Source: Clostridiales bacterium
GTDB taxonomy: Bacteria; Bacillota; Clostridia; Christensenellales; UBA1242
Length of the DNA stretch: 64,000 bases
Reading direction: 5' to 3'
NCBI GenBank assembly: GCA_015069325.1
Contig: SVIV01000002.1
Location: 181,694-245,693 of the forward strand
The notes beneath the pieces are model-generated. The model had not been told where the DNA came from, made no database searches, and saw nothing but the letters and a program-made list of their open reading frames with translations. The position numbers and the translations under genes are program-made. Every line of letters starts with the position of its first letter. Positions within the stretch are counted from its first letter, which is position 1. Below, one piece after another: positions 2,651 to 54,668 of this stretch.

Positions 2651-4726
2651 TTACTTTTTATTACACTCTTTTAAACAATTTTTACCATATGGACATCTTC
2701 TTTTTTTAAGTTTTTTGAATATCACAACCACAGAAATGATTATAGTAAACATTGCCAACAGCAACAAAACAACTCTTGTAACTCCAAATATTTCGCAGGC
2801 AGAAGAGATTGAATAAACAACAAAAGCACAAATGTAAGCAACAACAAACTCAATTAATACAGATATTGCTGTCCACTTCCTTCCTATTTCCTTATTTAAA
2901 ACCGAGATGGTCGCAAAGCAAGGCATATACAACAGGCAAAATACTAAAAACGAAAGCACCGAACTTGCACTTGCAAAACTGGCAACTGCACTTAAGGACA
3001 AAATGGACGATGCTATCTCACCTGGTGGCACATTATTGAACATTGCTATTGACGAAACTATCACTTCTTTCGCCACAAGCCCCGCAATCAAACTTGCCAC
3101 TAGTGCCCAAGAACCAAACCCTAAAGGAATAAACATCGGCGCGAGCAACCGCCCAAACGTTTCAAGCATACTTTGACCTTTCCCGTTAGGAACATATTTA
3201 AAGGAAATAGTAAAATTTGACAGGAGCCATACAATCACATTCATCGCAATAATAATCCCGCCGACACGTGAAATAAAGAGTTTTATATTTTTCCACAGCA
3301 CTTTAACCGCCGATTTGATACTGGTCATTCTATAAGACGGAAACTCTAAAATAAAGGATTGTTTTTGGCTTTTTAAATATGTTTTTTCAAAAATAAATGA
3401 GATAAGAAGTGCAATAATCACACCAAGTAGGTATAATCCCAAAACCACCCAAATATTGTTTGCTCCAAAGAATGCACCTCCCAAAACTGTGTAAATGGGG
3501 AATTTTGCACTACAACTCATATATGGGGTAAGGAGCGCTGTTTTCATTTTTGATTTTTCATCTTCCATATTTCTTGAAGTCAAGACTGCTGATGTAGAAC
3601 ACCCAAACCCCATCAAAAGTGTATAAATCGCTTTCCCACTAAGCCCCACCTTAGATAAGATATCATCAAACAAAAAGGCTATTCGAGCAAGATATCCGCT
3701 ATCTTCTAAAATAGACAAGAATAAAAAAAGAAGACCAACTTGCGGTAAAAAAGCGAGAATTGCACCAGCACCACCAAAGACCCCATCACAAAATAGGTTT
3801 GTAATCCAACTACCCTGCCCAAACAATGAAATCAGCCCGCATGATAATGGCGAGAAGATGAGTTTTTCAATTGTCAACGCAAGTAAATCAGAAAGCCATC
3901 TGCCTACAGAGAAAAAGGTAATATAAAACACACTTGCAAGAATGCCCAAAAACACAGGAAATGCCAAAATTTTGTTTAAAAACAGGCCATCTAACTTACT
4001 TTTCCCCTGAACTTTTCCATTCGAAACTATTGAATCTTTCAAAACATCATCAATATAGTCATATCGTATTTTCGCAATTTCATCACAAAAGTTGAACATT
4101 TCATTGATTTTAAACTTTTCTTTTACATATTCATCATCTTCCAGTGTTTTTATTTTATAATAACGGCTGTTCTTTTCCCCAAAATCAAACCTTGACACCT
4201 TTTGTAAATCAATTTTTCTTACATAGTGCAAAGCATATTCTCTTTCTTCTTGAAAATTAACAATTGCTCTGTTTATCTCTTGACAGGCGTTTCTATCACC
4301 CGCATTAAGATGTATTATTTTTACTCCCAATAAATTTGATAATTTCAAATAATCACATTTTTGCATAGGCTTTTTATCAATTTGATTTACCACTAAAATC
4401 ACTTTAAGTCCCAGTTCCAAAAGAGAAAGTGTGAGATATAAATTTCTTCGTAAATTGCTTGCATCACAAATATTAATCACAATATCTTGCAAATTTTTGT
4501 ATATATAATCTCTTGCAACCTTTTCTTCAAAACTTAAAGACGAAAGTGAGTAAATCCCCGGAAGATCAATTAACCTTATTTGTTCTTCTTTAAACTGATA
4601 TACTCTTGCCTTTTCTGTGACGGTTACCCCGTGCCAATTTCCCGTTTTTTCATTTGCCCCTGTCAAAGAATTGAAAAGAGTTGTCTTCCCCGTATTTGGG
4701 TTGCCTACTAACATCACATTAATCAT
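2651..4726 (-). CDS. feoB: ferrous iron transporter FeoB (with Cys-rich C-terminal tail)
   Basis: 691 aa. N-terminal G-domain VMLVGNPNTGKTTLFN...DLPG, followed by a polytopic membrane domain. The C-terminus ends RRCPYGKNCLKECNKK. Confidence 0.95.
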   Translation of the reverse strand: MINVMLVGNPNTGKTTLFNSLTGANEKTGNWHGVTVTEKARVYQFKEEQIRLIDLPGIYSLSSLSFEEKVARDYIYKNLQDIVINICDASNLRRNLYLTLSLLELGLKVILVVNQIDKKPMQKCDYLKLSNLLGVKIIHLNAGDRNACQEINRAIVNFQEEREYALHYVRKIDLQKVSRFDFGEKNSRYYKIKTLEDDEYVKEKFKINEMFNFCDEIAKIRYDYIDDVLKDSIVSNGKVQGKSKLDGLFLNKILAFPVFLGILASVFYITFFSVGRWLSDLLALTIEKLIFSPLSCGLISLFGQGSWITNLFCDGVFGGAGAILAFLPQVGLLFLFLSILEDSGYLARIAFLFDDILSKVGLSGKAIYTLLMGFGCSTSAVLTSRNMEDEKSKMKTALLTPYMSCSAKFPIYTVLGGAFFGANNIWVVLGLYLLGVIIALLISFIFEKTYLKSQKQSFILEFPSYRMTSIKSAVKVLWKNIKLFISRVGGIIIAMNVIVWLLSNFTISFKYVPNGKGQSMLETFGRLLAPMFIPLGFGSWALVASLIAGLVAKEVIVSSIAMFNNVPPGEIASSILSLSAVASFASASSVLSFLVFCLLYMPCFATISVLNKEIGRKWTAISVLIEFVVAYICAFVVYSISSACEIFGVTRVVLLLLAMFTIIISVVVIFKKLKKRRCPYGKNCLKECNKK

Positions 4727-9830: not shown

Positions 9831-9906
9831 TATAATCTCCTTGCTTTAAATTATATCACACTTACTTTTATTGTCAAGATTAAAATAAAGTGAAATTAAA
9901 TTCACT

Positions 9907-12041: not shown

Positions 12042-13166
12042 TTATCTTCTTTCTAAAGAAGTTAATGCGTAATCAACAAGAGAATAAATTGATGCCATTG
12101 TAGGTTTTTCTTGTCCAGGAATTGGTGGAACACCTAATTTTATATTTCTTCCCAAGCATTTCGCAAGATAATCCTTCCCACCTTTCACTTTTGCAATTCC
12201 ACCACCTGTCAAATAAATAGGTAAGTGCGCAATATATTCTTTTGAATACTCTTGCAGGCAAGTGTTTACAACTTCCGCCAATTCTTCAATTCGATATGCA
12301 ACAACTTCATTTGCACTGTTAAGCACAACTTTTTCAATCTTTCCGTTTTCTAATACTACATCATAACAGTCATTTGGTTTTCCCTTAATTGAAAGCACAA
12401 CTTCGTTTTTAAGCCTTAGCGCATCTTTGATTGATAGTTCAAATGCTTCGGCAAGATCATTTGTAATAAATCCACCGCCACGAGAAAGAGAAGTAAGCAT
12501 TAACAACCCATTACCTTTTACAAGAGATATACTTGTTGAGATATCACCACTATCAAGCAAAAGAGATAGGTCTTCTTTTTTATCTTTAGGAAGAATAAAT
12601 TGTGATTGAGCAAGCACTTCGCTTATATATTCAACATATTGAAATCCTAAAGAAGATGCAATATCATTAAATAAGTCAATAAACATTTTATTTGCATAGA
12701 CAACTGAAAGCTTGCCTACCAGAGTGCTTCCTACATATCCCACTGGTTCAAGCATAGTTTTTCCATCAACGTCAAAAGAAATAGGACTTACTGAAACTAC
12801 TTCAACTTCAGTATTTTTACTTTTTTCGCTGGCCATATAAAAAAGTTCATCAATATCATCTTTTTTAATTTTTCTTCGTTCGGCAAAATTCAAACTGCAT
12901 TCCAATTGCATAACAGAAGAAAACTCTGCAGGCACTCCCACATAAATTTTTTTAATCTTGTTTAAATATGGCGCAAATTCTTGAACGATTTCCTTAAATA
13001 GTTTAGGTAATTCTTCTTTGTTTAAAAATTCGCCTTCATAAAAACCGTCATATTCAATTTCTTTAAATCCTTTAACCGCAAACGTCCTGTTTAATCCCCT
13101 TCCTGCAATCATAGCGCGAAGGCGAGAAGAACCAATGTCAAAAGCTAAAACAAATTTTTCTTTCAT
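12042..13166 (-). CDS. ftsA: cell division protein FtsA
   Basis: 374 aa. Actin-like ATPase with an AFDIGSS phosphate-1 motif. Directly upstream of ftsZ. Confidence 0.9.
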   Translation of the reverse strand: MKEKFVLAFDIGSSRLRAMIAGRGLNRTFAVKGFKEIEYDGFYEGEFLNKEELPKLFKEIVQEFAPYLNKIKKIYVGVPAEFSSVMQLECSLNFAERRKIKKDDIDELFYMASEKSKNTEVEVVSVSPISFDVDGKTMLEPVGYVGSTLVGKLSVVYANKMFIDLFNDIASSLGFQYVEYISEVLAQSQFILPKDKKEDLSLLLDSGDISTSISLVKGNGLLMLTSLSRGGGFITNDLAEAFELSIKDALRLKNEVVLSIKGKPNDCYDVVLENGKIEKVVLNSANEVVAYRIEELAEVVNTCLQEYSKEYIAHLPIYLTGGGIAKVKGGKDYLAKCLGRNIKLGVPPIPGQEKPTMASIYSLVDYALTSLERR

Positions 13167-15489: not shown

Positions 15490-16791
15490 ATGAGAAAAAC
15501 ATCAACAACATTTAGAGAAGTAATTGATACGTATTATAATTTTCGAAGAAATCTTGCAGACTGGAACGACTTTTATAATGATGCATCAGACTTTCTTTCA
15601 ACAATAATTCTCGCATCAAACAATCAATTTCTAGAATCGCTGAGTTTAAATAACAAAATTTCTCTTTGCGAACGTTTAGTCTTTGTAATTGACGGATTTC
15701 CAAGTGCCTTTCCTTATGGAGAAAGCAATTCCTACGCATCTCAAGTAAACAAACTTGACGGACAACAGCATTTAGATGGCTACTATAATTTATGGAAAGA
15801 TTCAAATAAAATTTTTTTAGGCTCTTTCTTTCCATATGGTATAAACGGACCACGCAAAGATATTAAAACAAATATCTATCTTGACAGCACAAATGCAAAC
15901 CTGTTAGTAGATATTAAAACAATGACAAAAAATCAAGAAAAAGTAGCAAGATTTTGTTTTGCAGATCGCTATAGCATTTATGTAAAAAGACCAAGATCAG
16001 TTTTTGTTCAATCTATTACAAATGATATTGAAAACATAATTTTTACAGACCGTTTTGACCCTTTCCACACAGGCAGAGATTCAAAAGATGACCATACAAA
16101 TAATTTTCCACAACATTCAAGTCCACAAATGCTAGAGTTGTTCAACAAATACTTTCAATCAACTGCAAAAACACCACACTTGCACTTTTACTTTGAAAGT
16201 GTATGCGCCGGAGACGTTATCCCTACAAAAGATGGCCATCAACCTAAAGGCAATGATAAATCATTAGCAATAAACCTTGGTGGATTATCGCAATACATAA
16301 ATGACCTTTGCATAGCAATTAAATCCTATGACAACACACAGCCATTGCCAGCTATTTTAAAATACGATTTGGGAATGCCATACCTTTCAATACTATATGG
16401 CTCAACAGCTTTTAATGATAGTTATTTTATATCAAAAATAAAACGACTTCCTAATTTAGATGACGCCATTAAAAGAGATATTCTTGGCAAACTTAGTGCG
16501 ACAAAGTTTTTAAAATTAAACCTTCAATTCTTTGCAAAAGGCAACGACAATTTACCAATTTTCCCAAAAGAAGCAGCTCACATAAAAATTGCTTTAAAAC
16601 AACTAAAACAATTGTCAATCGCATACAAATTCATTGATGACAATGCCGAACGTTTAACATCAGGACAACAAAGATCGCTTGTTTCAGCAATTAATGATGG
16701 ATTAAACCAGCATCAGAAAATATATCTTGAATCCAACAATGAAAAAGATTTCAATGAAAATCGTGAAGACGATTTTGAACCAATACTATAA
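15490..16791 (+). CDS. hypothetical protein (433 aa orphan)
   Basis: Promoter TTGACA-N17-TAAAAT, RBS AGGAGA, terminator at 16811-16842. No motif recognised. Confidence 0.5.
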   Translation: MRKTSTTFREVIDTYYNFRRNLADWNDFYNDASDFLSTIILASNNQFLESLSLNNKISLCERLVFVIDGFPSAFPYGESNSYASQVNKLDGQQHLDGYYNLWKDSNKIFLGSFFPYGINGPRKDIKTNIYLDSTNANLLVDIKTMTKNQEKVARFCFADRYSIYVKRPRSVFVQSITNDIENIIFTDRFDPFHTGRDSKDDHTNNFPQHSSPQMLELFNKYFQSTAKTPHLHFYFESVCAGDVIPTKDGHQPKGNDKSLAINLGGLSQYINDLCIAIKSYDNTQPLPAILKYDLGMPYLSILYGSTAFNDSYFISKIKRLPNLDDAIKRDILGKLSATKFLKLNLQFFAKGNDNLPIFPKEAAHIKIALKQLKQLSIAYKFIDDNAERLTSGQQRSLVSAINDGLNQHQKIYLESNNEKDFNENREDDFEPIL

Positions 16792-16852
16792 AAAATCAAA
16801 TTTATAACATAAAAAAAGATATTCGTAGTTGAATATCTTTTTGTTTTAAATT

Positions 16853-23149: not shown

Positions 23150-24145
23150 CTATAACAACTCTATCTGTAATTCTTCACACTGTTTGAGTGTGTCTTTATC
23201 CCAATAACTTGCTTGAACTTCTCCAATATGTGCACGACCAAGAAGCAACATACATAATCTGCTTTGACCTATTCCACCACCAATTGTAAGCGGCAACTCT
23301 TCTTTGACAATTGATTGATGATAAGCATATTCTAATCGTTCTTGCTTACCTGATTTTTCAAGTTGCTTAATTAAAGTATCTTTATCAACCCTAATTCCCA
23401 TACTTGAAATTTCAATAGCCATATCCAACACTTCGTGATAGAAAAGTAAATCTCCGTCTAAACTCCAATCATCATAGTCTGGCGCTCTCGTATCGTGCGG
23501 TTTGCCATCGCTTAAATCATCACCAATGCCAATAATAAATACAGTTTTATATTGTTTTGTAATCAAATATTCTCTTTCTTTATCTGTTTTATCTGGATAC
23601 AAATCCAAAAGTTCTTGACTTGTTATAAAGAAAACATCTTTGCATATTTCCACACCATCAAACCCTTTTGTCTTTAAAAATTCACTAGTGTCCGCAATTG
23701 CTTTAACAATCTTTTTGACAGTTTTCTTTAAAAAATCTACAGTTCTATCTTTTCTAACTATAACTTTTTCCCAATCCCATTGATCAACATAAATTGAATG
23801 AGTTTCATCCATTTTATCATCTCTTCGAATTGCAGTCATATCAGTGTATAAACCCTTATGAATAGGAAAATCATATTTTTTTAGTGCCATACGCTTCCAT
23901 TTAGCAAGAGATTGAACTATTTCGAGCTGTTTACCATCTTTCAAAATATCAAACGATACTTTACGCTCAACTCCACTTAAATCATCTTGCAAACCACTTT
24001 CTTTCGTTACAAGTAATGGTGCTGAAACTCTTGTTAAATCTAATGCTCCAGCCAATTTTCTTTCAAACTTATCTTTGATAAATTTTATATATTTTTGTTT
24101 ATCTAATATTCTTAAATGTGTATATTTTTCTTTAATAAATTTCAT
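23150..24145 (-). CDS. asnA: aspartate--ammonia ligase (asparagine synthetase A)
   Basis: 331 aa with LDLTRVSAPLLV..SGLQDDLSG.ERKVSF and a class-II aaRS-like core ending GGGIGQSRLCMLLL. Confidence 0.9.
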   Translation of the reverse strand: MKFIKEKYTHLRILDKQKYIKFIKDKFERKLAGALDLTRVSAPLLVTKESGLQDDLSGVERKVSFDILKDGKQLEIVQSLAKWKRMALKKYDFPIHKGLYTDMTAIRRDDKMDETHSIYVDQWDWEKVIVRKDRTVDFLKKTVKKIVKAIADTSEFLKTKGFDGVEICKDVFFITSQELLDLYPDKTDKEREYLITKQYKTVFIIGIGDDLSDGKPHDTRAPDYDDWSLDGDLLFYHEVLDMAIEISSMGIRVDKDTLIKQLEKSGKQERLEYAYHQSIVKEELPLTIGGGIGQSRLCMLLLGRAHIGEVQASYWDKDTLKQCEELQIELL

Positions 24146-24213: not shown

Positions 24214-24288
24214 TCACCTAAAAACTCTCCTTAAATATTTATTATTGTTATTATCATCTTCGCCCGCTACGGCGTTTGTCTTTTTCAT
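24214..24288 (-). promoter_or_regulatory. second Asn-rich mini-ORF in the asnA leader (MKKTNAVAGEDDNNNNKYLRRVFR)
   Basis: RBS AAAGGAG 5 nt before the ATG at 24288. Four consecutive Asn codons. Stop at 24216-24214. Confidence 0.4.
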
Positions 24289-24330
24289 AACATCTCCTTT
24301 TTTCAATTTTTTTTATAGTTAACAACACTA

Positions 24331-24429
24331 AGTAAAAATAGCACACCCTTTAGAGAGTGTGCTGTGATATGTGTTATTTTAATAACATCAATATAAACAA
24401 AACACTCTCTTGGATTTCAAGAGAGTGTT
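24331..24429 (-). promoter_or_regulatory. asnA leader attenuator: hairpin 24401-24429, terminator 24331-24362, alternative pairing between them
   Basis: Minus-sense AACACTCTCTTG-aaatc-CAAGAGAGTGTT followed by UUUUGUUUAU, then GCACAC-ucucuaaag-GGUGUGC followed by UAUUUUU. AGAGAGUGU of the first hairpin can instead pair with ACACUCUCU, which overlaps the terminator 5' arm. Confidence 0.55.
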
Positions 24430-24450: not shown

Positions 24451-24534
24451 TTAGATTTTTTCAACAACAAAAATGAAACCCATATTAAATGCGTTTAAAT
24501 TATTATTGTTGTTATTATTTATAACTCTAAACAT
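24451..24534 (-). promoter_or_regulatory. Asn-run leader peptide (MFRVINNNNNNNLNAFNMGFIFVVEKI) upstream of asnA
   Basis: Promoter TTGACA-N17-TGtgaTAAAAT at about 24565-24590. RBS AAAGGAGAAGG. Seven consecutive AAT/AAC codons plus two more Asn. Confidence 0.55.
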
Positions 24535-24666
24535 ACCTTCTCCTTTCATTTAGATGTCTCTATTTTATCACATAATTCACCATATGTCAATACATTTTGA
24601 AAAATTTTTAAATTCATAACAACCCAGTCAATCAATTACACATTTTAGAGGAGTTATAGTATCTTA

Positions 24667-25095
24667 TTATGGTTTATATTTTAAAATAAAGTGTGAATGA
24701 TTTTCTCCATCAACAATAAAACCATGCCTTTCGTAAAATCTTTTAGCTGGATTTGTTTTAAATGTGTCTAAATAAATTGGTTTATTAAGTTGATTTGCTT
24801 GTTTTATAAAATGTTGCATTATCTCAGAACCCAAACCATTGTTTCTAAAGTTTGGAAATAAACACAAAACATCAACAGTAATTTTTGTCTCTTCTTCTTT
24901 AAAATAAACAAACCCCGCGATCTCGTTTCCCACCATTATTTTAAACAAACTTGATTTTAATCTCTCCAAATGTTGTTCCATTATACTTTGATCAAACTGT
25001 CCAAAAAATTCTATAACATATTTTTCAAAAGCATCTTTTTGCATTTTTAAATATAAATCTCGATCTTTTTGTTCATATAATTTCAATTCAAACAT
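24667..25095 (-). CDS. GNAT N-acetyltransferase (array unit 6)
   Basis: 142 aa from the ATG at 25095 (MFELKLYEQ...). RNNGLGSEIM acetyl-CoA loop. The track start at 25179 translates the promoter region. Confidence 0.8.
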   Translation of the reverse strand: MFELKLYEQKDRDLYLKMQKDAFEKYVIEFFGQFDQSIMEQHLERLKSSLFKIMVGNEIAGFVYFKEEETKITVDVLCLFPNFRNNGLGSEIMQHFIKQANQLNKPIYLDTFKTNPAKRFYERHGFIVDGENHSHFILKYKP

Positions 25096-25117
25096 ATTTT
25101 TATCCCTTAATAATTTC

Positions 25118-25170
25118 ATTATACCACACAAATAAAAAAATGTATACACTTTGAATGCAAAATGTATACA
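25118..25170 (-). promoter_or_regulatory. unit-6 promoter with twin TGTATACA palindromes
   Basis: TGTATACA at 25141-48 and 25163-70, 22 bp apart. Extended -10 TGtGgTATAAT with TATAAT at 25118-23. Confidence 0.65.
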
Positions 25171-25184
25171 TTTTATCAAAAAAA

Positions 25185-25435
25185 TTAAATTTTACTTTTC
25201 CTACTCTGTCTATCCACATTCAAAACCACCCCTATTGCACTCATAAAAACAAGGAGCGCAGTTGAACCTGCAGAGTTTTGGGGCCCCCGCAAATCGTGAG
25301 AATTGCGGGGAAAAGGAAAAACGGAGCGTCAAATTTTGTGCAAGCAAAGCGAGCACAACTCACAAAGCGAGTGTTTTGACGCAGGTAGTGGCAAACCCGT
25401 TGGTGGTATGCTACCTGTTACCACGAGTTATTGCA
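25185..25435 (-). repeat. decoy copy A of the ftsW 3' tail (with structured insert)
   Basis: Encodes ..PPTGLPLP | insert | AGSTALLVFMSAIGVVLNVDRQSRKSKI* and aligns to ftsW 29534-29680. An in-frame TGA lies inside the insert. Confidence 0.85.
25272..25382 (+). ncRNA. structured insert, copy A (111 nt)
   Basis: Hairpin CCCCGCAA/TTGCGGGG, outer stem GCGTCAAA/TTTGACGC, inner hairpin TTGTGC/GCACAA, purine linker GGGGAAAAGGAAAAAC. The strand call is tentative and rests on G-T pairs. Confidence 0.45.
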
Positions 25436-25446
25436 CTATGGATTTC

Positions 25447-25965
25447 TTATTTAATTTTTTCATCTTCAAGTGGTTCACATTCAATTAATTTACTTTCATA
25501 AGCCAAATAATTAAACAATTGCATAAAAACCTGTTCAACCTTAGGCACCCTGCTACCACTGTTGCAAAAACAAATTGCGCAACCCATATGTGGATAACTC
25601 CAACTTTCTTTATCTTCATTTTTTATGAATTTTATTGTAAAAGCATCTTCAGTTTTTATAATATTTAAAACATTCGCTTCATCTTCTGGCCAATCTTCAC
25701 TAATATAAGATATTATGTTCCCTTGTAATACTGGACGATATTTGTCATCATTCTTCCCTACAGCATTAAATAATTGATTAAAAACACCATACGTTATTTT
25801 ATCGCTTTTATCTATTTCAAAAATTTTATTTTCTTTATGATTCTCTGGCAACCAATATAAATCCAAATTGCCACCAACTGTCATTACAAATGACTTACCA
25901 TTTTTATCGGTAATTTTTACATCATAATATCCTTCTTTATTGTTTCTTAGTTGTTTTGTAATCAC
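25447..25965 (-). CDS. hypothetical protein (array unit 5)
   Basis: 172-aa ORF with a GTG start after RBS AGGAGAA. Own promoter TTTACA-N17-TGgTAATAT. The stop abuts decoy tail A. Confidence 0.55.
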   Translation of the reverse strand: MITKQLRNNKEGYYDVKITDKNGKSFVMTVGGNLDLYWLPENHKENKIFEIDKSDKITYGVFNQLFNAVGKNDDKYRPVLQGNIISYISEDWPEDEANVLNIIKTEDAFTIKFIKNEDKESWSYPHMGCAICFCNSGSRVPKVEQVFMQLFNYLAYESKLIECEPLEDEKIK

Positions 25966-25981
25966 TATTTTCTCCTAAAAA

Positions 25982-26057
25982 ATATTACCACATTTTCAAA
26001 CAATTGTAAATAGAATGAAATAAAAAATGTATACACTTTGATTACAATATGTATACA
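25982..26057 (-). promoter_or_regulatory. unit-5 promoter region with twin TGTATACA palindromes
   Basis: TGTATACA at 26028-35 and 26050-57, 22 bp apart. Divergent -10 TAATAT at 25982-87. Confidence 0.6.
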
Positions 26058-26070
26058 TTTCATTAAAAAA

Positions 26071-26327
26071 TTAAATTTTACTCTCTCTACTCTGTCTATC
26101 CACATTCAGCACCACCCCTATCGCACTCATAAAAACAAGGAGCGCAGTTGAACCTGCAGAGTTTTGGGGCCCACGCAAATCGTGAGATTTGTGGGGAAAA
26201 GGAAAAACAGAGCGTCAAATTTTGTGCAAGCAGAGCGAGCACAAATCACAAAGCGAGTGTTTTGACGCAGGTAGTTGCAAACCTGTTGGTGGGATTGAGC
26301 CTCTTAACATCAGTTATTGTATTATAA
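26071..26327 (-). repeat. decoy copy B of the ftsW 3' tail (with structured insert)
   Basis: Same architecture as copy A. Insert at 26158-26268. Confidence 0.85.
26158..26268 (+). ncRNA. structured insert, copy B (111 nt)
   Basis: Same helices as copy A. The P1 3' arm reads ATTTGTGGGG, which makes a G-T pair on the plus strand. Confidence 0.45.
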
Positions 26328-26846
26328 AGTTACCCAATACCTTTCTAAATTTATTCCCTCTCTTTCAAGTGTTCTAGTATCCTCATATTGTCCACCATTT
26401 GCTAAAATACATTTTCTTGATGCAATGTTGGTGTCTTTACAAGACAATAGCACTTTATCAATTCCCAACTCTTTGCATTTCTTTAACCCAAGAGCAAGTA
26501 ATTTTTTACCATAACCTTTCCTTCTTTCATCAACAGCAACACTATCTCCACAATGCCCGCCATAATTCAATAAGAAATCACTTAATTTATGTCTAATTTG
26601 AAACATTCCTATTAACTTGTTATCAGACTTCCTTATACAAATGTATTGCGTTGAAGGAACATATCCTGCAGGTAAATTTTTTCCCTCTCTCCAATCATTA
26701 TTTTTTTGTAGCCATGTTTCAAAATCATCTTTTCTTAAATCTCCACAGCCATCCATACTAGAACCCGATTCAATCATATCTTTTTTATATCTTTCTACTT
26801 GCTCTTTATATTCAGCTGTTGGTATTATTAACTCTAATTCATCCAT
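26322..26846 (-). CDS. GNAT acetyltransferase (COG3981-like; array unit 4)
   Basis: 174 aa with VAVDERRKGYGKKLLALGLKKCKELG, the acetyl-CoA binding motif. The stop codon lies inside the conserved repeat boundary ttattgtattataa. Confidence 0.8.
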   Translation of the reverse strand: MDELELIIPTAEYKEQVERYKKDMIESGSSMDGCGDLRKDDFETWLQKNNDWREGKNLPAGYVPSTQYICIRKSDNKLIGMFQIRHKLSDFLLNYGGHCGDSVAVDERRKGYGKKLLALGLKKCKELGIDKVLLSCKDTNIASRKCILANGGQYEDTRTLEREGINLERYWVTL

Positions 26847-26875
26847 AAATTACACCCCACGCTATCACTATATCA

Positions 26876-26928
26876 ATTATACCACACAAATAAAAAAATG
26901 TATACACTTTTCTTACAATTTGTATACA
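26876..26928 (-). promoter_or_regulatory. unit-4 promoter with twin TGTATACA palindromes
   Basis: TGTATACA at 26899-906 and 26921-28, 22 bp apart. TGtGgTATAAT with TATAAT at 26876-81. Confidence 0.65.
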
Positions 26929-26942
26929 TTTCTATAAAAATT

Positions 26943-27130
26943 TTATTTGAGATTCACTCCACTCATTTCTCTCGGTCGGAATGACAGTGTTTTACTTTGT
27001 TTATCTACGTTGAGAACAACTCCGATGGCAGACATAAAGACAAGCAAACTTGTTGACCCTGCAGAGATGAACAGAAGTAGTAATCCTGTTGGTGGGATTG
27101 AGCCCCTTAACATCAGTTATTGTATTATAA
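26943..27130 (-). repeat. decoy copy C of the ftsW 3' tail (no insert; intact alternative C-terminus)
   Basis: Reads in frame as IPPTGLLLLFISAGSTSLLVFMSAIGVVLNVDKQSKTLSFRPREMSGVNLK*. It lacks the ~110-nt insert. Confidence 0.85.
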
Positions 27131-27140
27131 AATTTCACAC

Positions 27141-27170
27141 AAAAAAAGAGCAAAATTTATTGCTCTTTTT
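27141..27170 (-). terminator. terminator of the PnuC unit
   Basis: Stem agagcaa/ttgctct with A and T runs. Nearly identical to the hairpin at 29064-29091. Overlaps the pnuC stop. Confidence 0.7.
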
Positions 27171-27864
27171 GCTTATATTGTTTTTTCTCTTCTAACTTCC
27201 AATGAATCAGACCATAGGTATCATTGGTTAAAAAAACAAAAAACGTAACAACGGTTGGCAAATAACCAATTCCGCTATTCACAACAACAATCGACCATAA
27301 AACGATTAAAATAATATCATTAAGAATAAAAGCTAAAGCATAATAGCTACATCTTCTAAGCATTAAATATGAAGCAACTAAAGATGTAATTAAAGACAAT
27401 GTGCTTATAATCAACTCACTAGTGTTTAATGCTTTTAATAAAAAATAAAATCCAATTGTTGCAAAAACTGTTGCAACAGACAAATATGCATATTCCTTTC
27501 CTTTTATCTTATTAACTTCAACAACTTGTGTATTTTCCTTATTTTTATTTCTCAACCAAGTAATTATTGAAAAGAAATAAATAGGAATCATTAATACAAT
27601 ATAAATTATTGCTTCACCATAATAACGTTGAACTATTGATATAATGGCATATAAAACACAATATATAATATTAAGAAATGGCGAAACAATTAAACCCTTA
27701 GCCAAAGTAAAAACAGCAATAATGCCAACTAATGAAGTAATTAACGAAAAAGCATTTTTATCTAAACTAAAAACAAAACACAAAACAATTGCCAACAAAC
27801 TAACAAATAAAAATAAAATTTCAAACAAATTCCAATTCTTAAAAAATTTTTTAAGCATAAGCAT
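27157..27864 (-). CDS. pnuC: nicotinamide riboside transporter PnuC family (array unit 3)
   Basis: 235 aa, 7-8 TM helices. N-terminal WNLFEILFL...LAKG...YGEAI..., a PnuC-like pattern. Confidence 0.75.
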   Translation of the reverse strand: MLMLKKFFKNWNLFEILFLFVSLLAIVLCFVFSLDKNAFSLITSLVGIIAVFTLAKGLIVSPFLNIIYCVLYAIISIVQRYYGEAIIYIVLMIPIYFFSIITWLRNKNKENTQVVEVNKIKGKEYAYLSVATVFATIGFYFLLKALNTSELIISTLSLITSLVASYLMLRRCSYYALAFILNDIILIVLWSIVVVNSGIGYLPTVVTFFVFLTNDTYGLIHWKLEEKKQYKQKEQ

Positions 27865-27878
27865 TCTCCAATGAGTTA

Positions 27879-27931
27879 ATTATACAATAAAAATAACAAA
27901 ATGTATACAAATTGCATGCAAAATGTATACA
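27879..27931 (-). promoter_or_regulatory. unit-3 promoter with twin TGTATACA palindromes
   Basis: TGTATACA at 27902-09 and 27924-31, 22 bp apart, flanking a TTGCATGCAA centre. TATAAT at 27879-84. Confidence 0.65.
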
Positions 27932-27947
27932 CTTTAACAAAAAAAAT

Positions 27948-28198
27948 TTAAATACTACTTTTTCTACTCTGCCTATCTACATTAAGCACAACCCCTATTG
28001 CACTCATGAATACTAGCAAACTTGTTGAGCCTGCATTTTGGCCCCCGCAAATCGTGAGATTTGTGGGGAAAAGGAAAAACAGAGCGTCAAATTTTGTGCA
28101 AGCAGAGCGAGCACAAATCACAAAGCGAGAGTTTTGACGCAGGTAGTGGCAATCCTGTTGGTGGGATTGACCCATTAACATCAGTTATTGTATTATAA
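27948..28198 (-). repeat. decoy copy D of the ftsW 3' tail (with structured insert)
   Basis: GSIPPTGLPLP and AGSTSLLVFMSAIGVVLNVDRQSRKSSI* are separated by the insert at 28035-28140. The upstream part is in a different frame. Confidence 0.85.
28035..28140 (+). ncRNA. structured insert, copy D (106 nt)
   Basis: P1 CCCCGCAAAT/ATTTGTGGGG (one G-T pair), P2 GCGTCAAA/TTTGACGC, P3 TTGTGC/GCACAA. Confidence 0.45.
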
Positions 28199-28219
28199 AA
28201 AAGCACAAAAAAAGAGTCT

Positions 28220-28699
28220 TTACAACTCTTTTTCCTCACTTTCTTGAATAACGTCTTGCTTGTGCAAGACCTCCAAACATTCTTGTTTAAACTTAGCAAT
28301 TTCCTCTTTATCTTCACCAAAATAAAGTTCACCTGCTATATCTAATAATTCATCTATAGTCATTAAATTATCATCATCTTTATAATAATTTATACCACTT
28401 CGTCTATTGGTATAATCTTGAGCAAGCAAACATGCCTCATCATATCTTGTCACACCATGATTTTTGCTTAAATCAGTATTCCTCAATGCCTTAATAAAAT
28501 ATTTTGGTTCTTTATATGGATCAAAAACATATTCACCAGTTTTACTTCTAGATAAATGTATTCGTGCACTCTCACTCAATCTTGTCATAAAAGTTTGAAA
28601 TGCATTTTTATTGTCGATAACAAATTCAATATGATAAAAATGATGACCTACACACTCATTACCACAAAAAACTCTAATTTCCTTAAATCGTTTTTTCAT
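28220..28699 (-). CDS. hypothetical protein (array unit 2)
   Basis: 159 aa from the ATG at 28699 (MKKRFKEIRVF...), preceded by RBS TAGGAGAAAG. The track start at 28780 translates the promoter. No motif recognised. Confidence 0.55.
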   Translation of the reverse strand: MKKRFKEIRVFCGNECVGHHFYHIEFVIDNKNAFQTFMTRLSESARIHLSRSKTGEYVFDPYKEPKYFIKALRNTDLSKNHGVTRYDEACLLAQDYTNRRSGINYYKDDDNLMTIDELLDIAGELYFGEDKEEIAKFKQECLEVLHKQDVIQESEEKEL

Positions 28700-28720
28700 A
28701 CATCTTTCTCCTATGCTTGC

Positions 28721-28773
28721 ATTATACCACACAAACAAAAAAATGTATACACATTGATTATAATTTGTATACA
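28721..28773 (-). promoter_or_regulatory. unit-2 promoter with twin TGTATACA palindromes
   Basis: TGTATACA at 28744-51 and 28766-73, 22 bp apart. TGtGgTATAAT with TATAAT at 28721-26. Confidence 0.65.
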
Positions 28774-28791
28774 TTTGCATTAAAATTTTTT

Positions 28792-29050
28792 TTAGATTTT
28801 ACTCTTCCTACTCTGTCTATCTATATTTAGAACAATCCCTATCGCACTCATAAAAACTAGCAAAGAAGTTGAGCCGGCATTCTGGGGCACCCCGCAAGTT
28901 GCAGGAGCGAAACTTGTGGGGATAAGGAAAAACCAAGCGTCAATTTTTGTGCGACCAACAGCGAGCACAAACTTAAAAGCGAGTGTTTTGACGCAGGTAG
29001 TGGCAAGCATGTTGGTGGAATTGAACCTCTTAACATCAGTTATTGTATTA
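28792..29050 (-). repeat. decoy copy E of the ftsW 3' tail (with structured insert)
   Basis: Tail AGSTSLLVFMSAIGIVLNIDRQSRKSKI*. Insert at 28879-28994. This is the most diverged copy. Confidence 0.85.
28879..28994 (+). ncRNA. structured insert, copy E (116 nt)
   Basis: P1 CCCCGCAAGTT/AACTTGTGGGG carries a compensatory A-T to G-C change relative to copies B and D. The loops differ but the stems are kept. Confidence 0.45.
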
Positions 29051-29063
29051 CAAATTTTTGCAT

Positions 29064-29091
29064 TAAAAAAAGAGCAAATTTATTGCTCTTT
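29064..29091 (-). terminator. terminator of the LytTR unit
   Basis: Stem agagcaa/ttgctct with A and T runs. Confidence 0.7.
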
Positions 29092-29093
29092 AC

Positions 29094-29444
29094 CTAAAAT
29101 TCTCTTTCATGTTCTCGATTTAATTTGGGGATGACATTTCTTTCAAAATCCACCACAGATAATTTTTTTAGTTGCATACCATTTCTAAATTTAACAGTAA
29201 CAAAAGACCCATTACTTAAATATGAATTCATTTCATTTGGATTTATATAAACAACGCAATTGTGTTTATAGCAAAATACTTTAGGCAACTTGTTTAATAA
29301 GTTTTCCATATCGCCCCATTGCAATGTAACGGTTTCTCCATCGATAAAATGTGTATCACATTTAAAACCATCTTCAACTATATACAAAATATCTCTTGAA
29401 TTAAATTCAATTCTTTTCCATGATCCAAATGGCGTAGCTTGCAT
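29094..29444 (-). CDS. stand-alone LytTR-type DNA-binding domain protein (array unit 1)
   Basis: 116 aa. RIEFNSRDILYIVEDGFKCDTHFIDGETVTLQWGDMENLLNKLPKVFCYKHNCVVYINPNEM fits the LytTR pattern (..I.yie......i.t.......sl..le..Lp..F.r.hrs.iVN...i). No receiver domain. Confidence 0.65.
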   Translation of the reverse strand: MQATPFGSWKRIEFNSRDILYIVEDGFKCDTHFIDGETVTLQWGDMENLLNKLPKVFCYKHNCVVYINPNEMNSYLSNGSFVTVKFRNGMQLKKLSVVDFERNVIPKLNREHEREF

Positions 29445-29464
29445 ATTGTTTCTCCTACTTTTTC

Positions 29465-29518
29465 ATTATACCACAAAAATAAAAAAAATGTATACACTTT
29501 GATTACGATTTGTATACA
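29465..29518 (-). promoter_or_regulatory. unit-1 promoter with twin TGTATACA palindromes, directly after the ftsW stop
   Basis: TGTATACA at 29489-96 and 29511-18, 22 bp apart. TGtGgTATAAT with TATAAT at 29465-70. Confidence 0.65.
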
Positions 29519-29533
29519 TTTATATTGAAAATA

Positions 29534-30649
29534 TTAAATTCTACCTTTTCGAGATTGTCTATCAACATTCAACACCACCCCTATCGCCGACATAAAAACA
29601 AGCAAACTTGTACTGCCGGCACTTATGAAAGGCAACGGCAGTCCTGTTGGTGGGATCGAACCTGTTACAACAGCGACATTAAGAAGGGTTTGCACTGCAA
29701 TAACAAATGCGACTCCGCAAGAAAGCATACTGCCAAAGCGGTCTTTTGCATTAAGACCTATTTTTATAATTTGCAAACATAAAAATAAGACAAACGAAAG
29801 ATATAAAACCACTCCCACAAATCCTATTTCTTCTCCCATAATTGAAAGAATAAAATCTGATTCAGCAAATGGAAGAAATAAATATTTTTGACGAGAGTTG
29901 AAAAGCCCAACACCAAACCATCCACCATCACCAAGAGAATAAAGCGATTGAATAAGCTGAAAACCTTCACCCTGCGGAGACGCCCAAGGATCAATAAACG
30001 CTAACAATCTTTTCATTCGATATGGCTCTGCAATAATTAGTAGTGGCACTGCAAGACCTGCAGGAATTGAAAACATAAGCGTATGCTTTTTGCTCATTCC
30101 ACCTATAATAAGCATACACAGCAAAACAAAACATATGCACATAGTTACACTCATACTAGGCTCCAACATAATCAGCAAAGCCATAACACCGCCTACCACA
30201 AGCACAGGAAATAACCCTTTTAAAGTTTTTACCTTATGATTATTATCTGCCAAATATGATGCTGTAAAAATCACCAATGCAAATTTTGCCACTTCTGATG
30301 GTTGAATTGAAAAGCCTAAAAGAGAAATCCATCTTTTTGCACCATATATTTCAACGCCCAAACCTGGAATAAAAACAAGGGATAAAAGCACACACGTTCC
30401 AACTACAATCCACCACTTAAGCTTTGCTAAGATATGATAATCCACCATTGAAAAGAAAATTAATCCACATATGCCCAAAATAAAACCAAAAAGTTGTTTA
30501 AAAAGAAAAAATTCGCTATTTCCATAATGATGCTGAGCAGAATAAAAACTTGCACTGTAAACCATAACACAGCCAAACAGTGCTAAGATTGCCACTATTG
30601 AAAAAATTAAAAGATATTCACCCTTGAAATTCAATTTTTTCAGTTTCAC
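29534..30649 (-). CDS. ftsW: SEDS-family peptidoglycan polymerase FtsW/SpoVE
   Basis: 371 aa, about 10 TM helices. C-terminal GSIPPTGLPLPFISAGSTSLLVFMSAIGVVLNVDRQ matches the SEDS signature. Located after murD in the dcw cluster. Confidence 0.9.
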   Translation of the reverse strand: MKLKKLNFKGEYLLIFSIVAILALFGCVMVYSASFYSAQHHYGNSEFFLFKQLFGFILGICGLIFFSMVDYHILAKLKWWIVVGTCVLLSLVFIPGLGVEIYGAKRWISLLGFSIQPSEVAKFALVIFTASYLADNNHKVKTLKGLFPVLVVGGVMALLIMLEPSMSVTMCICFVLLCMLIIGGMSKKHTLMFSIPAGLAVPLLIIAEPYRMKRLLAFIDPWASPQGEGFQLIQSLYSLGDGGWFGVGLFNSRQKYLFLPFAESDFILSIMGEEIGFVGVVLYLSFVLFLCLQIIKIGLNAKDRFGSMLSCGVAFVIAVQTLLNVAVVTGSIPPTGLPLPFISAGSTSLLVFMSAIGVVLNVDRQSRKGRI

Positions 30650-52640: not shown

Positions 52641-54668
52641 TTAAAATCCAAAATCGTCGTCTGGTTTATTTCCAAAAACAATATTATTTCTCTTATCAAT
52701 GTCATAGAAAATTCTGCTTACATCTAATGGCTTTGACGTTCTTGCCGGCATTTTTGCCGAACTCTTTTCCATAAATTCACATTCAAAGAATGGAGTCATA
52801 ATATCTTTCATAATGCTCTTTCTGAAAATTTTTGCAATAACAGTCCAACGTGGAAGCTGACGAAGTTCTTGCTTATCGATAAGCGGTTTTCTTGTGCGTT
52901 GAGTTGAAGTCGAAATGTTTTCTCCTTGATTTGTATCTTTTGTATTTCTTGATCTATTTTCTTCTTCGTGGAAGACTGTAGTTTCACCGCAGGCTTCAGA
53001 GAAGGCTTGAATTGTTGAAGGATCTTCCGAACCTAAGAACACTTCCATTTGGAAGTTTCCGCGAATATTCTTCGCTTCTTCTGAACCATATTTAATATCA
53101 AGCTGAGTATAAGATTGTAAGATAATTTCAAAGAAAACATTTCTCGAACGAGCAACAGTAACCATAGTCCCAAATCCAGGAATTGCAGGCATATTACCAA
53201 ATTCATCAAGGATAAAGTAAACAGGACGTTTAAGTTTTCCTTTCTTGCCATTTTTAGGATTAACTGTTTTATTTGCCACATCTACAAGCACTTTATATAG
53301 TTGGCTTATGCAAAGGACACCAATTGGGTGTCTTTCTGTTTTATGGTCAGGAATTCTAATAAAGAATGCTGTTGGTTGATCTGCAAATTTAGTAAAGTCA
53401 ATTTCCGTTCCGCTTGTAACATACAAAATACCGTCATCACCAAGAGTTTTACCTACTGATGAACCAAGAGTTGAAAGGAATGATCTTTGTGTAACTGATG
53501 CCGCACCGCAAACAGTTGACATGAGTTGTTGAACATTTCCGTTGATTGTATCTCTGCCTTCCGCGTATTTTGCAAGAGTTTTCAGTTGACTTTCTCTTTC
53601 CCCTGCAGGATCTCTTTTCATAGCCATTTTGTAAAGGTTGAAGAAGTTGAATTTTTCTTTTGTCATACCAAGTCTTGGATCGCGAGTATCTTCAAGCATC
53701 GCATACATAAGACCTGTAATAAAGTCTCTACAACCATTTGGCCAAGTTGGATCTTTGCATTGTGGATCATCTGGAATAAGAGAAAGCGCAATATTTCTTA
53801 AGTCGCTTTTTGCTTCATCTTCAAGTTTGATTTTTGTCGCAAGAAGTTCTCGCTTAATCATATCGTGAGTTGGGAATGCCTTTCCTTCGAAACCATACCA
53901 AGTATTGCCATAAGTAGCACCATTAAGGTCTGCTTCTGAAATTCGAGTAAATCCCATATCTTCAGGAGTGCAATCAATATACTTTTTCACTTCTTTCGCA
54001 AGATTGCCTGCTCTTTGATAAGTATTGTAAGCAATTTCCATTGGGTTCCACATAGAAGACTCGTAAGGATCGTTAAGGTTTAAAACAATTACGTTATACC
54101 CTTCCTTTCTAAGCACATCTGCGTTGTCTTCATAAAGTTCTCCCTTAGGGTCAGTCATAACAATACTTGGTTTCTCTGCCGAGTGAGATAAAATTCTGAT
54201 TGTTGGGTTTGCGAGAAGTTGTGTTTTACCAGTTCCTGTAGTTCCCAAAACGAGAGCGTGAGTTTCTGGTTTCATATTAACTTCAAACTTACTGCCTACT
54301 CTTTTATTTCTAAAAATGAAACCTGTTTTATTGCACATTGGAAGATCTTTCCAAGTAGAATAAATAAGTTCTTTATCAGTCCTTAAAGTTTCAGCCGAAA
54401 TGAATTTAGAGTCAAATGCAATATCAGTCTCTTCCCCTTCGGTAGTAACACCTTTATTTTTGTGTTTTTCTTCCTTTTTGCCTTTTGTGCATAATCCCAA
54501 AATAAATCCGCCCCCAGCAGCGCACCCCATTATCATAAGTGCAAGATCTGACGTGAGTGAAGCTTGAATATCTTGAGCATTCATATAATTAAGCCCGAAA
54601 CCCGCAGCATAGCCTAGGATTCCAAAAAGTATCATGAATACTATAGCCATTTTGAATTTTCTTCCCAT
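52641..54668 (-). CDS. type IV secretion coupling protein (TraG/VirD4 family)
   Basis: 675 aa. Two N-terminal TM helices. Walker A LGTTGTGKTQ and Walker B-like YFILDEFGN. Confidence 0.8.
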   Translation of the reverse strand: MGRKFKMAIVFMILFGILGYAAGFGLNYMNAQDIQASLTSDLALMIMGCAAGGGFILGLCTKGKKEEKHKNKGVTTEGEETDIAFDSKFISAETLRTDKELIYSTWKDLPMCNKTGFIFRNKRVGSKFEVNMKPETHALVLGTTGTGKTQLLANPTIRILSHSAEKPSIVMTDPKGELYEDNADVLRKEGYNVIVLNLNDPYESSMWNPMEIAYNTYQRAGNLAKEVKKYIDCTPEDMGFTRISEADLNGATYGNTWYGFEGKAFPTHDMIKRELLATKIKLEDEAKSDLRNIALSLIPDDPQCKDPTWPNGCRDFITGLMYAMLEDTRDPRLGMTKEKFNFFNLYKMAMKRDPAGERESQLKTLAKYAEGRDTINGNVQQLMSTVCGAASVTQRSFLSTLGSSVGKTLGDDGILYVTSGTEIDFTKFADQPTAFFIRIPDHKTERHPIGVLCISQLYKVLVDVANKTVNPKNGKKGKLKRPVYFILDEFGNMPAIPGFGTMVTVARSRNVFFEIILQSYTQLDIKYGSEEAKNIRGNFQMEVFLGSEDPSTIQAFSEACGETTVFHEEENRSRNTKDTNQGENISTSTQRTRKPLIDKQELRQLPRWTVIAKIFRKSIMKDIMTPFFECEFMEKSSAKMPARTSKPLDVSRIFYDIDKRNNIVFGNKPDDDFGF

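Follow-up and report, generated by a model that had tools for sequence, protein, structure and literature searches.

The window, by which we mean the whole 64-kb stretch of DNA analyzed here, derives from an uncultured gut member of the Clostridia that forms spores, has a GC content of ~32%, and carries on its minus strand an ftsW gene, the product of which is named Clostridiales FtsW in public records. The gene ends the mur part of the dcw cluster, and murA, divIB, ftsA, and ftsZ are found only at ~15.3 kb and below; SpoIIR, YpeB, SpoIIGA, and sigE/G are located nearby. Between ftsW and asnA, six single-gene cassettes are stacked on the minus strand (24667-29700), containing a 116-aa ORF, a 186-aa ORF, PnuC, a GNAT, a 172-aa ORF, and a second GNAT. 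Each cassette gene is preceded by a module comprising a left motif (TTTATAATACAATAACTGATGTTAAGAGG), the last ~45 codons of ftsW, a stop codon, a palindrome pair, and a promoter of the extended -10 type (TATACA-17-TGnTATAAT). The live ftsW tail serves as the first module and the other five are displaced tails (A-E), with no tail after the last cassette gene. Contigs from several samples, 22 in all, share an identical array, and in related species, arrays of this kind hold other genes and are located between ftsW and murA. A literature search on ftsW-linked cassette systems found nothing relevant.

The palindrome pair (ATGTATACA-N14-TGTATACAT) occurs at only six sites in the 64 kb and overlaps the -35 element of every cassette promoter; read on the minus strand, it also gives a weak hairpin with a T-run after it. 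The loci L007 (~12657-12684) and L091 (~9843-9870) contain shorter variants of the 11-6-11 form (AAAATGTATGC-GATTTC-GTATACATTTT). The palindrome pair may function as an operator or as the core site of a recombinase. Unlike the live gene, all displaced tails begin with TTTATAATACAATAACT(G/C)(A/G)TGTTAAG, which supplies an in-frame ATG or GTG. As for the other end of the module, the conserved part reaches the start codon in many cassettes through CATAGGAGAAA, and the variable part of a cassette therefore begins at or just inside the ORF. The first ten codons (MGFFDIFK(R/K)K) are common to two otherwise unrelated cassette ORFs, one in L091 (9207-9240) and one in L093 (10541-10575).

Four of the five displaced ftsW 3' ends in the window are split by an insert at one fixed position, as became evident from the alignment of the five displaced tails with the native tail. 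The alignment bears out the coordinates of the preliminary description, which was made by reading the sequence alone, as well as its statement that native ftsW (tail at ~29630) and the displaced tail C (~27060) lack the element. Read in the ftsW direction, module A consists of the left motif, the 5' part of the tail, the insert, the 3' part of the tail, the stop codon, the palindrome pair, and the promoter. The coordinates are collected in Table 1.

Table 1. Features of ftsW and the array downstream of it in the window, with equivalents in other loci where available.
Feature	Coordinates	Strand	Description and basis
Live ftsW	29534-30649	-	Pfam FTSW_RODA_SPOVE, E = 2.9e-94; tail ~29534-29700, target motif uninterrupted
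Displaced tail module A, with insert	25130-25450	-	Tail alignment, motif and promoter scans
Displaced tail module B, with insert	26020-26335	-	
Displaced tail module C, without insert	26885-27135	-	Leftover ORF 26943-27113 intact
Displaced tail module D, with insert	27895-28205	-	
Displaced tail module E, with insert	28735-29060	-	
Insert copy A	25272-25382	+	111 nt; tail alignment; covariance-model score 141.9 bits
Insert copy B	26158-26268	+	111 nt; tail alignment; covariance-model score 139.7 bits
Insert copy D	28035-28140	+	106 nt; tail alignment; covariance-model score 144.1 bits
Insert copy E	28879-28994	+	116 nt; tail alignment, folds, pair counts; covariance-model score 139.1 bits
P1 hairpin of copy A	25285-25310	+	CCCCGCAAATC / GAATTGCGGGG, loop GTGA; folds, pair counts, pattern scan
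P1 equivalents	B 26171-26196; D 28043-28068; E 28890-28921	+	
Purine linker of copy A	25311-25325	+	AAAAGGAAAAACGGA; copy alignment
P2 domain of copy A	25326-25382	+	GCGTCAAA (25326-25333) pairs with TTTGACGC (25375-25382)
P3 within P2, copy A	25336-25341 with 25353-25358	+	TTGTGC pairs with GCACAA; two AGCGAG motifs also inside P2
3' tail parts	25185-25271, 26071-26157, 27948-28034, 28792-28878		Equivalents in L006, L007, L093
Palindrome-pair sites	25140-25171, 26027-26058, 26898-26929, 27901-27932, 28743-28774, 29488-29519		
Tail-start motif sites	27100-27135 (copy C), same position in all displaced tails		Also L091 9668-9700; L093 5680-5710, 6826-6856

In the ftsW direction, the insert starts directly 3' of the CCT (Pro) codon of the GLPLP stretch and ends 5' of (S)AGST. 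It takes the place of 6-10 nt of the target, corresponding to the F, I, and sometimes S codons. The position between GLPLP and AGST given in the preliminary description is thus the right one, whereas its exact replacement of the nine nucleotides encoding FIS has to be relaxed to a loss of 6-10 nt, with the TCT Ser codon retained in copies A and B. The insert lengths of 111, 111, 106, and 116 nt break every reading frame and copy A contains an in-frame TGA, also read as such before; the four lengths together with the stop codons therefore leave no conserved product from the insert. A conserved ORF on the plus strand was rejected as the frames differ between copies A and E, and a protein search with a spurious 45-aa ORF over copy D, an artefact of the gene caller, matched only itself.

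Tails without an insert contain an intact mini-ORF for the last ~45-60 FtsW residues with one transmembrane helix (e.g., 26943-27113 in the window), which the insert destroys. The preliminary description had considered a device that inactivates decoy tails; the interruption of the leftover ORF agrees with this, but the conserved structure described below is not explained by it. The 3' tail parts following the insert keep the frame AGSTSLLVFMSAIGVVLNVDRQSRK... in all ten copies despite a nucleotide divergence of 13-32%. We take this to mean that the tail ends were shaped by selection on the FtsW protein, in other species or while attached to ftsW. In L093 (10296-10440), ~130 nt after the last displaced tail are homologous to the DNA downstream of the live ftsW in L089 (6560-6680), as would be expected if the most distal tail was an original chromosomal ftsW end.

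We searched for further copies in ftsW neighborhoods, using 66 genome loci together with contigs reached via FtsW homologues, and a covariance model (R1) built from 10 copies (~81% identity). The insert amounts to 12 full copies and one truncated copy in four related species of uncultured Clostridia: the window species, JAFTTP01 (RGIG4138), JAGAKV01 (RGIG8534), and the genome behind ERZ28595300 scaffold_1990. The same two copies were found in each of L006 and L097, which are independent assemblies of a single species (FtsW identity of 85%). L007 (FtsW identity of 81%) has one full and one truncated copy, and L093 (82%) has three copies, with three of its tails split and two uninterrupted. All 12 full copies and the truncated one are located at the same site, starting after ...CC(T) of the LPLP codons. 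The insert occupies 11 of ~22 displaced tails and none of the live ftsW tails. Several assemblies of the window species also share the same copies, and we saw no presence/absence polymorphism among assemblies of one species.

Outside the displaced ftsW tails, the covariance model found nothing in 1.09 Mb of DNA, of which ~140 kb came from carrier genomes, and three additional loci gave no match. Two insert patterns produced only chance matches in viral contigs, in unrelated coding or other DNA. One pattern scan of metagenome contigs returned a single chance match (L079), which is a weak negative: the known carrier JGI contig 3300018475 was missed, so that this collection does not cover the samples concerned. 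Neither the plasmids nor the phages in the collections searched matched the insert by blastn. The contig L103 stops at ftsW.

Arrays of displaced tails with no insert at all are present in L091, L095, and L102, where FtsW is equally similar, and in L040, which has a different promoter. Because the arrays of these sister species and some of the L093 tails do without it, array accretion at ftsW does not need the insert, which is an add-on in part of the clade and outside the machinery making the arrays.

Comparison of the copies within each genome points to a discrete unit. The two copies of L006 have no difference over 110 nt, whereas their upstream tail parts differ at 10 of 48 positions, the nearest one 4 nt from the border, and the downstream parts at 6 of 84 positions, starting at +16. 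At the divergence rate of the 5' flank, the probability of observing no difference in 110 nt is ~5e-12. A very similar picture was obtained for the first two copies of L093 (1/109 in the insert; 9/48 upstream, the nearest at -4; 11/81 downstream, from +30) and for copies B and D of the window (2/106 plus a terminal indel; 4/47 upstream, the nearest at -8; 19/84 downstream, from +6). The adjoining tail DNA differs by 9-23% within a genome, with differences beginning 4-8 nt from a border, and on the 3' side the identical stretch extends beyond the insert, by 15 nt in the case of L006 and by 29 nt in that of L093. In four of five within-genome comparisons, the tails switch mosaic type at the insert borders.

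Near-identical inserts in diverged flanks indicate that the insert was copied as a unit between tails. Three genomes as well as independent assemblies show this pattern, so that assembly artefacts are unlikely to be its cause. Between genomes, the inserts diverge by 6-17% and their lineages are mixed: the third copy of L093 (L093c) is 6% from L006 and 6-7% from the other two L093 copies, and copy E of the window is separate from A, B, and D. No similarity was detectable between the insert and either ftsW or the remainder of the module, and a local duplication of either was rejected because the alignment scores equal those of shuffled sequences. Judged from these comparisons, the insert is foreign DNA that was copied with sharp borders into already diverged tails.

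The fold consisting of a P1 hairpin, a purine linker, and a P2 stem enclosing P3, originally proposed by eye, was reproduced as the minimum-free-energy structure. With DNA parameters, exactly P1 and P2(P3) are predicted on both strands, with z-scores of -2.5 to -5.6 and only 0-2 of 200 shuffles equally stable; RNA parameters gave z-scores of -1.3 to -4.5. Over 10 copies, 95.2% of the cells in P1, P2, and P3 are paired. RNAalifold proposed a pairing AAAAC/GUUUU in place of P2, and the two are indistinguishable because both are invariant. A P0 stem (CCTGC/GCAGG) formed with the tail flank is not retained in the E-type copies and was rejected, as was a P4 hairpin on the minus strand, which is not conserved in L006 or E.

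The compensatory base changes on which the preliminary description had placed weight are true but statistically weak. Copy E forms a separate lineage in which the P1 apex is extended and two P1 pairs are compensated (A-U to G-C and C-G to U-A), and these are the only both-sided changes among 25 pairs in the 10 copies, P2 being invariant throughout. A covariance model, as suggested at the outset, recovered copies in four species; covariation was not significant in these 10 closely related copies (~81% identity), as 20 of 500 shuffles matched the observed score. The structure nevertheless behaves as if constrained, judging from signs softer than covariation. Variable columns make up 10 of 50 paired but 30 of 60 unpaired positions. 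The P1 apex varies in length (by +6 nt in E and ~+40 nt in L093c) while the base of the stem is retained, the plus-strand sequence of the P1 loop is GTGA, GTAA, or GAGA, and the linker core AAGGAAAAAC is unpaired yet invariant across all 10 full copies. The enlarged P1 apex of L093c (L093 10140-10225) holds a nested second P1-like hairpin, which is diverged, inverted, and closest to the E type of the window; a pattern scan of the carrier loci found no P1-like C4-stem-G4 hairpin outside the tails.

As for the strand, the G-T pair noted earlier in copies B, D, and E is real, and the preference for the plus strand drawn from it holds when all wobble cells are counted: all 13 are G-U on the plus strand and none on the minus strand, where they become C-A. 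Accordingly, 95.2% of the cells are paired on the plus strand vs. 90.0% on the minus strand. The plus strand was also more stable in all eight copies folded both ways as RNA, by 0.2-9 kcal/mol, and in all four copies folded with DNA parameters, whereas shuffle z-scores did not separate the strands in either the RNA or the DNA folds. Because the 13 wobble cells trace to only 3-4 independent substitution events (p of about 0.06-0.12), the assignment to the plus strand is suggestive and not proven. The GC skew is negative on the plus strand across the whole window, with the genes on the minus strand, and the plus strand is therefore the leading-strand template.

Several known identities do not apply. 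Over the whole window, Rfam 15 gave nothing at the gathering score except one tRNA, and over the insert it gave no match on either strand with E-values up to 5-10, in keeping with the earlier impression that this is no described RNA family. An intrinsic terminator was rejected, as no stem is followed by a U-tract and the terminator scan listed none at P1 or P2; on the plus strand P1 is followed by AAAAGGAAAAA, and on the minus strand a U-rich run precedes it. A classical MITE of the DDE type was likewise rejected, the target being shortened by 6-10 nt rather than duplicated and terminal inverted repeats being absent. The latter had been named at the outset as a possible trivial source of the pairing. 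The termini are not inverted repeats of each other, apart from a 3-4 nt GCA(G) repeat in some copies. A Pfam scan of 50 ORFs across the window, among them all long minus-strand ORFs close to the array, detected no recombinase, integrase, transposase, or reverse transcriptase, and no recombinase, integrase, or transposase was seen adjoining the arrays in L091, L093, L095, L097, and L102.

By analogy, the insert would be most like the miniature elements derived from IS200/IS605 (PATEs) or the REP/REPIN units, which depend on Y1 HUH transposases. These are also non-coding and ~100 nt in size, lack terminal inverted repeats and target duplication, have imperfect hairpins near both ends, fold better on one strand, and have a fixed insertion point next to a short sequence. 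P1 begins ~13 nt from one end of the insert and P2/P3 is located at the other end, matching the subterminal hairpins of IS200/IS605-type elements, and hairpin units nested in inverted orientation, as in L093c, are shared as well. Unlike these elements, the insert has no cognate transposase in the window and no dispersed copies in the DNA available, removes 6-10 nt of its target, and uses a single target inside a coding motif instead of many intergenic sites; moreover, its better-folding strand is the leading-strand template and not the lagging-strand template. In its choice of site, the insert resembles homing elements such as group I introns and inteins, which likewise occupy the best-conserved coding motif of a gene that is essential and occur as identical copies between diverged flanks, the co-conversion on one side being variable. 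However, it is far too small for a homing element, has no ribozyme or endonuclease, and would not be removed from RNA or protein, hence its confinement to dead fragments. We have filed it in neither family because the strand differs from the expected one, and the defining enzyme and the distribution of copies are known from the window and the ftsW loci only.

Other comparisons are looser. BOX, RUP, and SPRITE of pneumococci and the bcr repeats of Bacillus cereus are also modular hairpin units of ~100 nt in a narrow clade, some of them transcribed, but they occur at scattered intergenic positions, with tens to hundreds of copies, whereas the insert is known from a single kind of site. SCC elements at rlmH, the orphan modules of Rhs/CDI loci, and tycheposon islands at tRNA genes resemble the host array, in that successive 3'-end insertions leave displaced ends and cargo; the likeness concerns the array context and not the insert. 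To our knowledge, no SCC, Rhs/CDI, or tycheposon system has a conserved structured insert splitting its displaced ends.

We favor, with a probability of roughly 40%, the reading that the insert is a miniature, non-autonomous, site-specific insertion element surviving only in dead ftsW tails. The P1 and P2(P3) domains would fold on the plus strand when single-stranded, and a trans-encoded enzyme, assumed together with its single-stranded substrate by analogy, might recognize the folded hairpin domains. The target would be the DNA of the conserved FtsW motif PLPFISAG, between the last Pro codon of GLPLP and (S)AG. An insertion into live ftsW would destroy FtsW, presumably with lethal outcome, and be lost, so that copies could persist only where cassette accretion has produced dead tails; there, the insert would interrupt the leftover reading frame and the homology with ftsW. 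The nested inverted hairpin of L093c is expected if hairpin units get inserted. Against such an element speak the lack of any transposase or recombinase in the 64-kb window or next to any array seen, the lack of copies beyond ftsW tails in the 1.09 Mb searched (~140 kb of it from carrier genomes), the lack of terminal inverted repeats and of a clear target duplication with 6-10 nt of the target missing, and the absence of insertion polymorphism within species. In addition, the leading-strand template is not the usual exposed single-stranded DNA, and gene conversion seeded in identical inserts and halted by diverged flanks could mimic the copying of a unit.

The last point leads to a reading that we hold to be unlikely but worth serious attention, in which the insert is a passive passenger that entered a displaced tail once, long ago and by accident, and was then spread and homogenized among tails by homologous recombination and gene conversion with neither a dedicated enzyme nor a function. 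The tails are direct repeats of 75-90% identity among which conversion is expected, the co-converted 3' stretches vary in length between L006 (15 nt) and L093 (29 nt), the window revealed no mobility gene, and the arrays are fixed within species. Conversion into insert-free tails, however, needs flanking homology and should co-convert the flanks, whereas the observed borders are sharp, the first differences lying 4 nt upstream in two genomes and, for B and D of the window, 6-8 nt away on either side. An accidental insertion would also leave the conserved stems, variable apex, and invariant unpaired linker in four species to be accounted for, when the coding 3' tail parts differ by 13-32%. A further reading, close to the guide or antisense RNA raised at the outset, is a functional non-coding RNA of the plus strand, antisense to ftsW and the cassette genes and acting, e.g., by cis or trans antisense pairing with the ftsW 3' end. 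The orientation of all 13 wobble cells, the higher fraction of paired cells and greater stability on the plus strand in every copy folded, the GNRA character of the P1 loop in three variants, the two compensated pairs in E, and bidirectional terminators 60-90 nt downstream on the plus strand of D and E all agree with it. We nevertheless consider such an RNA rather improbable, as neither the promoter scan nor direct reading revealed a convincing conserved plus-strand promoter, no stem is followed by a U-tract, the wobbles reduce to 3-4 events, covariation is not significant, z-scores do not separate the strands, and the expansion in L093c gives a UCAC loop on the plus strand; identical copies in diverged flanks and the single codon-precise site would also be unexplained. 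A sense RNA element on the minus strand, providing a 3'-end, processing, or insulator signal in read-through transcripts between cassettes, appears highly improbable. The minus strand is certainly transcribed where the upstream cassette has no terminator (copies A and B), and the hairpins form there as well, but the 13 wobble cells turn into C-A mismatches, no U-tract follows P1 while a U-rich stretch precedes it, and the presence of an insert is independent of the absence of a terminator, D and E having one upstream.

The preliminary description had also raised a recombination-site structure akin to attC. In its present form, the folded plus strand would be the substrate of a trans-encoded recombinase moving cassettes, with cassette borders at the insert borders, and the insert would be the site used for recombination by a cassette system of Gram-positive gut anaerobes, so far undescribed, that requires no integrase at the locus; we find this improbable. 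Integron attC sites are likewise structured, strand-biased elements of 57-141 nt with a variable apex length, found in one orientation between promoter-distal cassettes. Mosaic breakpoints do fall at the insert borders in the majority of comparisons, one insert is found between most cassettes, and the 3' tail parts keep the FtsW C-terminal frame despite ~20-25% nucleotide divergence, as if they at times had been the working end of ftsW. In sedentary chromosomal integrons, the folding strand has been reported to lie on the leading-strand template, which is the case here. Unlike integrons, the locus has no intI or other integrase in 64 kb, every cassette has its own promoter, and the array is the same in all 22 contigs. 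The R'' (RYYYAAC) and R' (GTTRRRY) cores are absent from the insert borders, the ends being GTTTTGGGG... and ...GTTTTGACGC on the plus strand and GCGTCAAAAC... on the minus strand, and it is the primary sequence that is highly conserved rather than the structure alone. Half of the inter-cassette modules have no insert. Taken with the wholly insert-free arrays of L091, L095, L102, and L040, the uninterrupted tail C of the window, two of the five L093 tails, and the lack of a nearby integrase, this means that the insert cannot be the site by which the array is built.

Were the insert a site-specific miniature element, as we favor, its lifestyle would be one little discussed so far, as the element would target a lethal site in an essential gene and yet persist. 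Cassette accretion would keep making dead copies of the target that act as safe havens, and the insert would mark dead tails. It also offers a handle on the ftsW-murA hotspot, at which gut Clostridia that are uncultured stack accessory genes equipped with promoters, coding for GNAT acetyltransferases, PnuC, and immunity-like proteins. An RNA or a recombination site would instead represent a new family with no counterpart in Rfam.

Some observations concern the surroundings of the array and other genomes. In L014, from another Clostridia MAG, many units of ~60 nt resembling the DNA downstream of ftsW are found on both sides of the gene (2919-3217 and 16193-16820). A lone TraG/VirD4-like coupling protein of type IV secretion is encoded in the window at 52641-54668, between genes for DUF285/LRR surface proteins and glmS; the window contains no further conjugation genes. 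Upstream of asnA (23150-24145), the minus strand contains two short Asn-rich leader ORFs (24214-24306 and 24451-24549), the peptides of which read MFRVINNNNNNNLNAF... with seven Asn in a row and ...GEDDNNNNKY.... With terminator-like hairpins nearby (24401-24429 and 24340-24363), the region looks like an Asn-sensing attenuator, as judged from its sequence, and the same leader is present in L006 (13169-13250).
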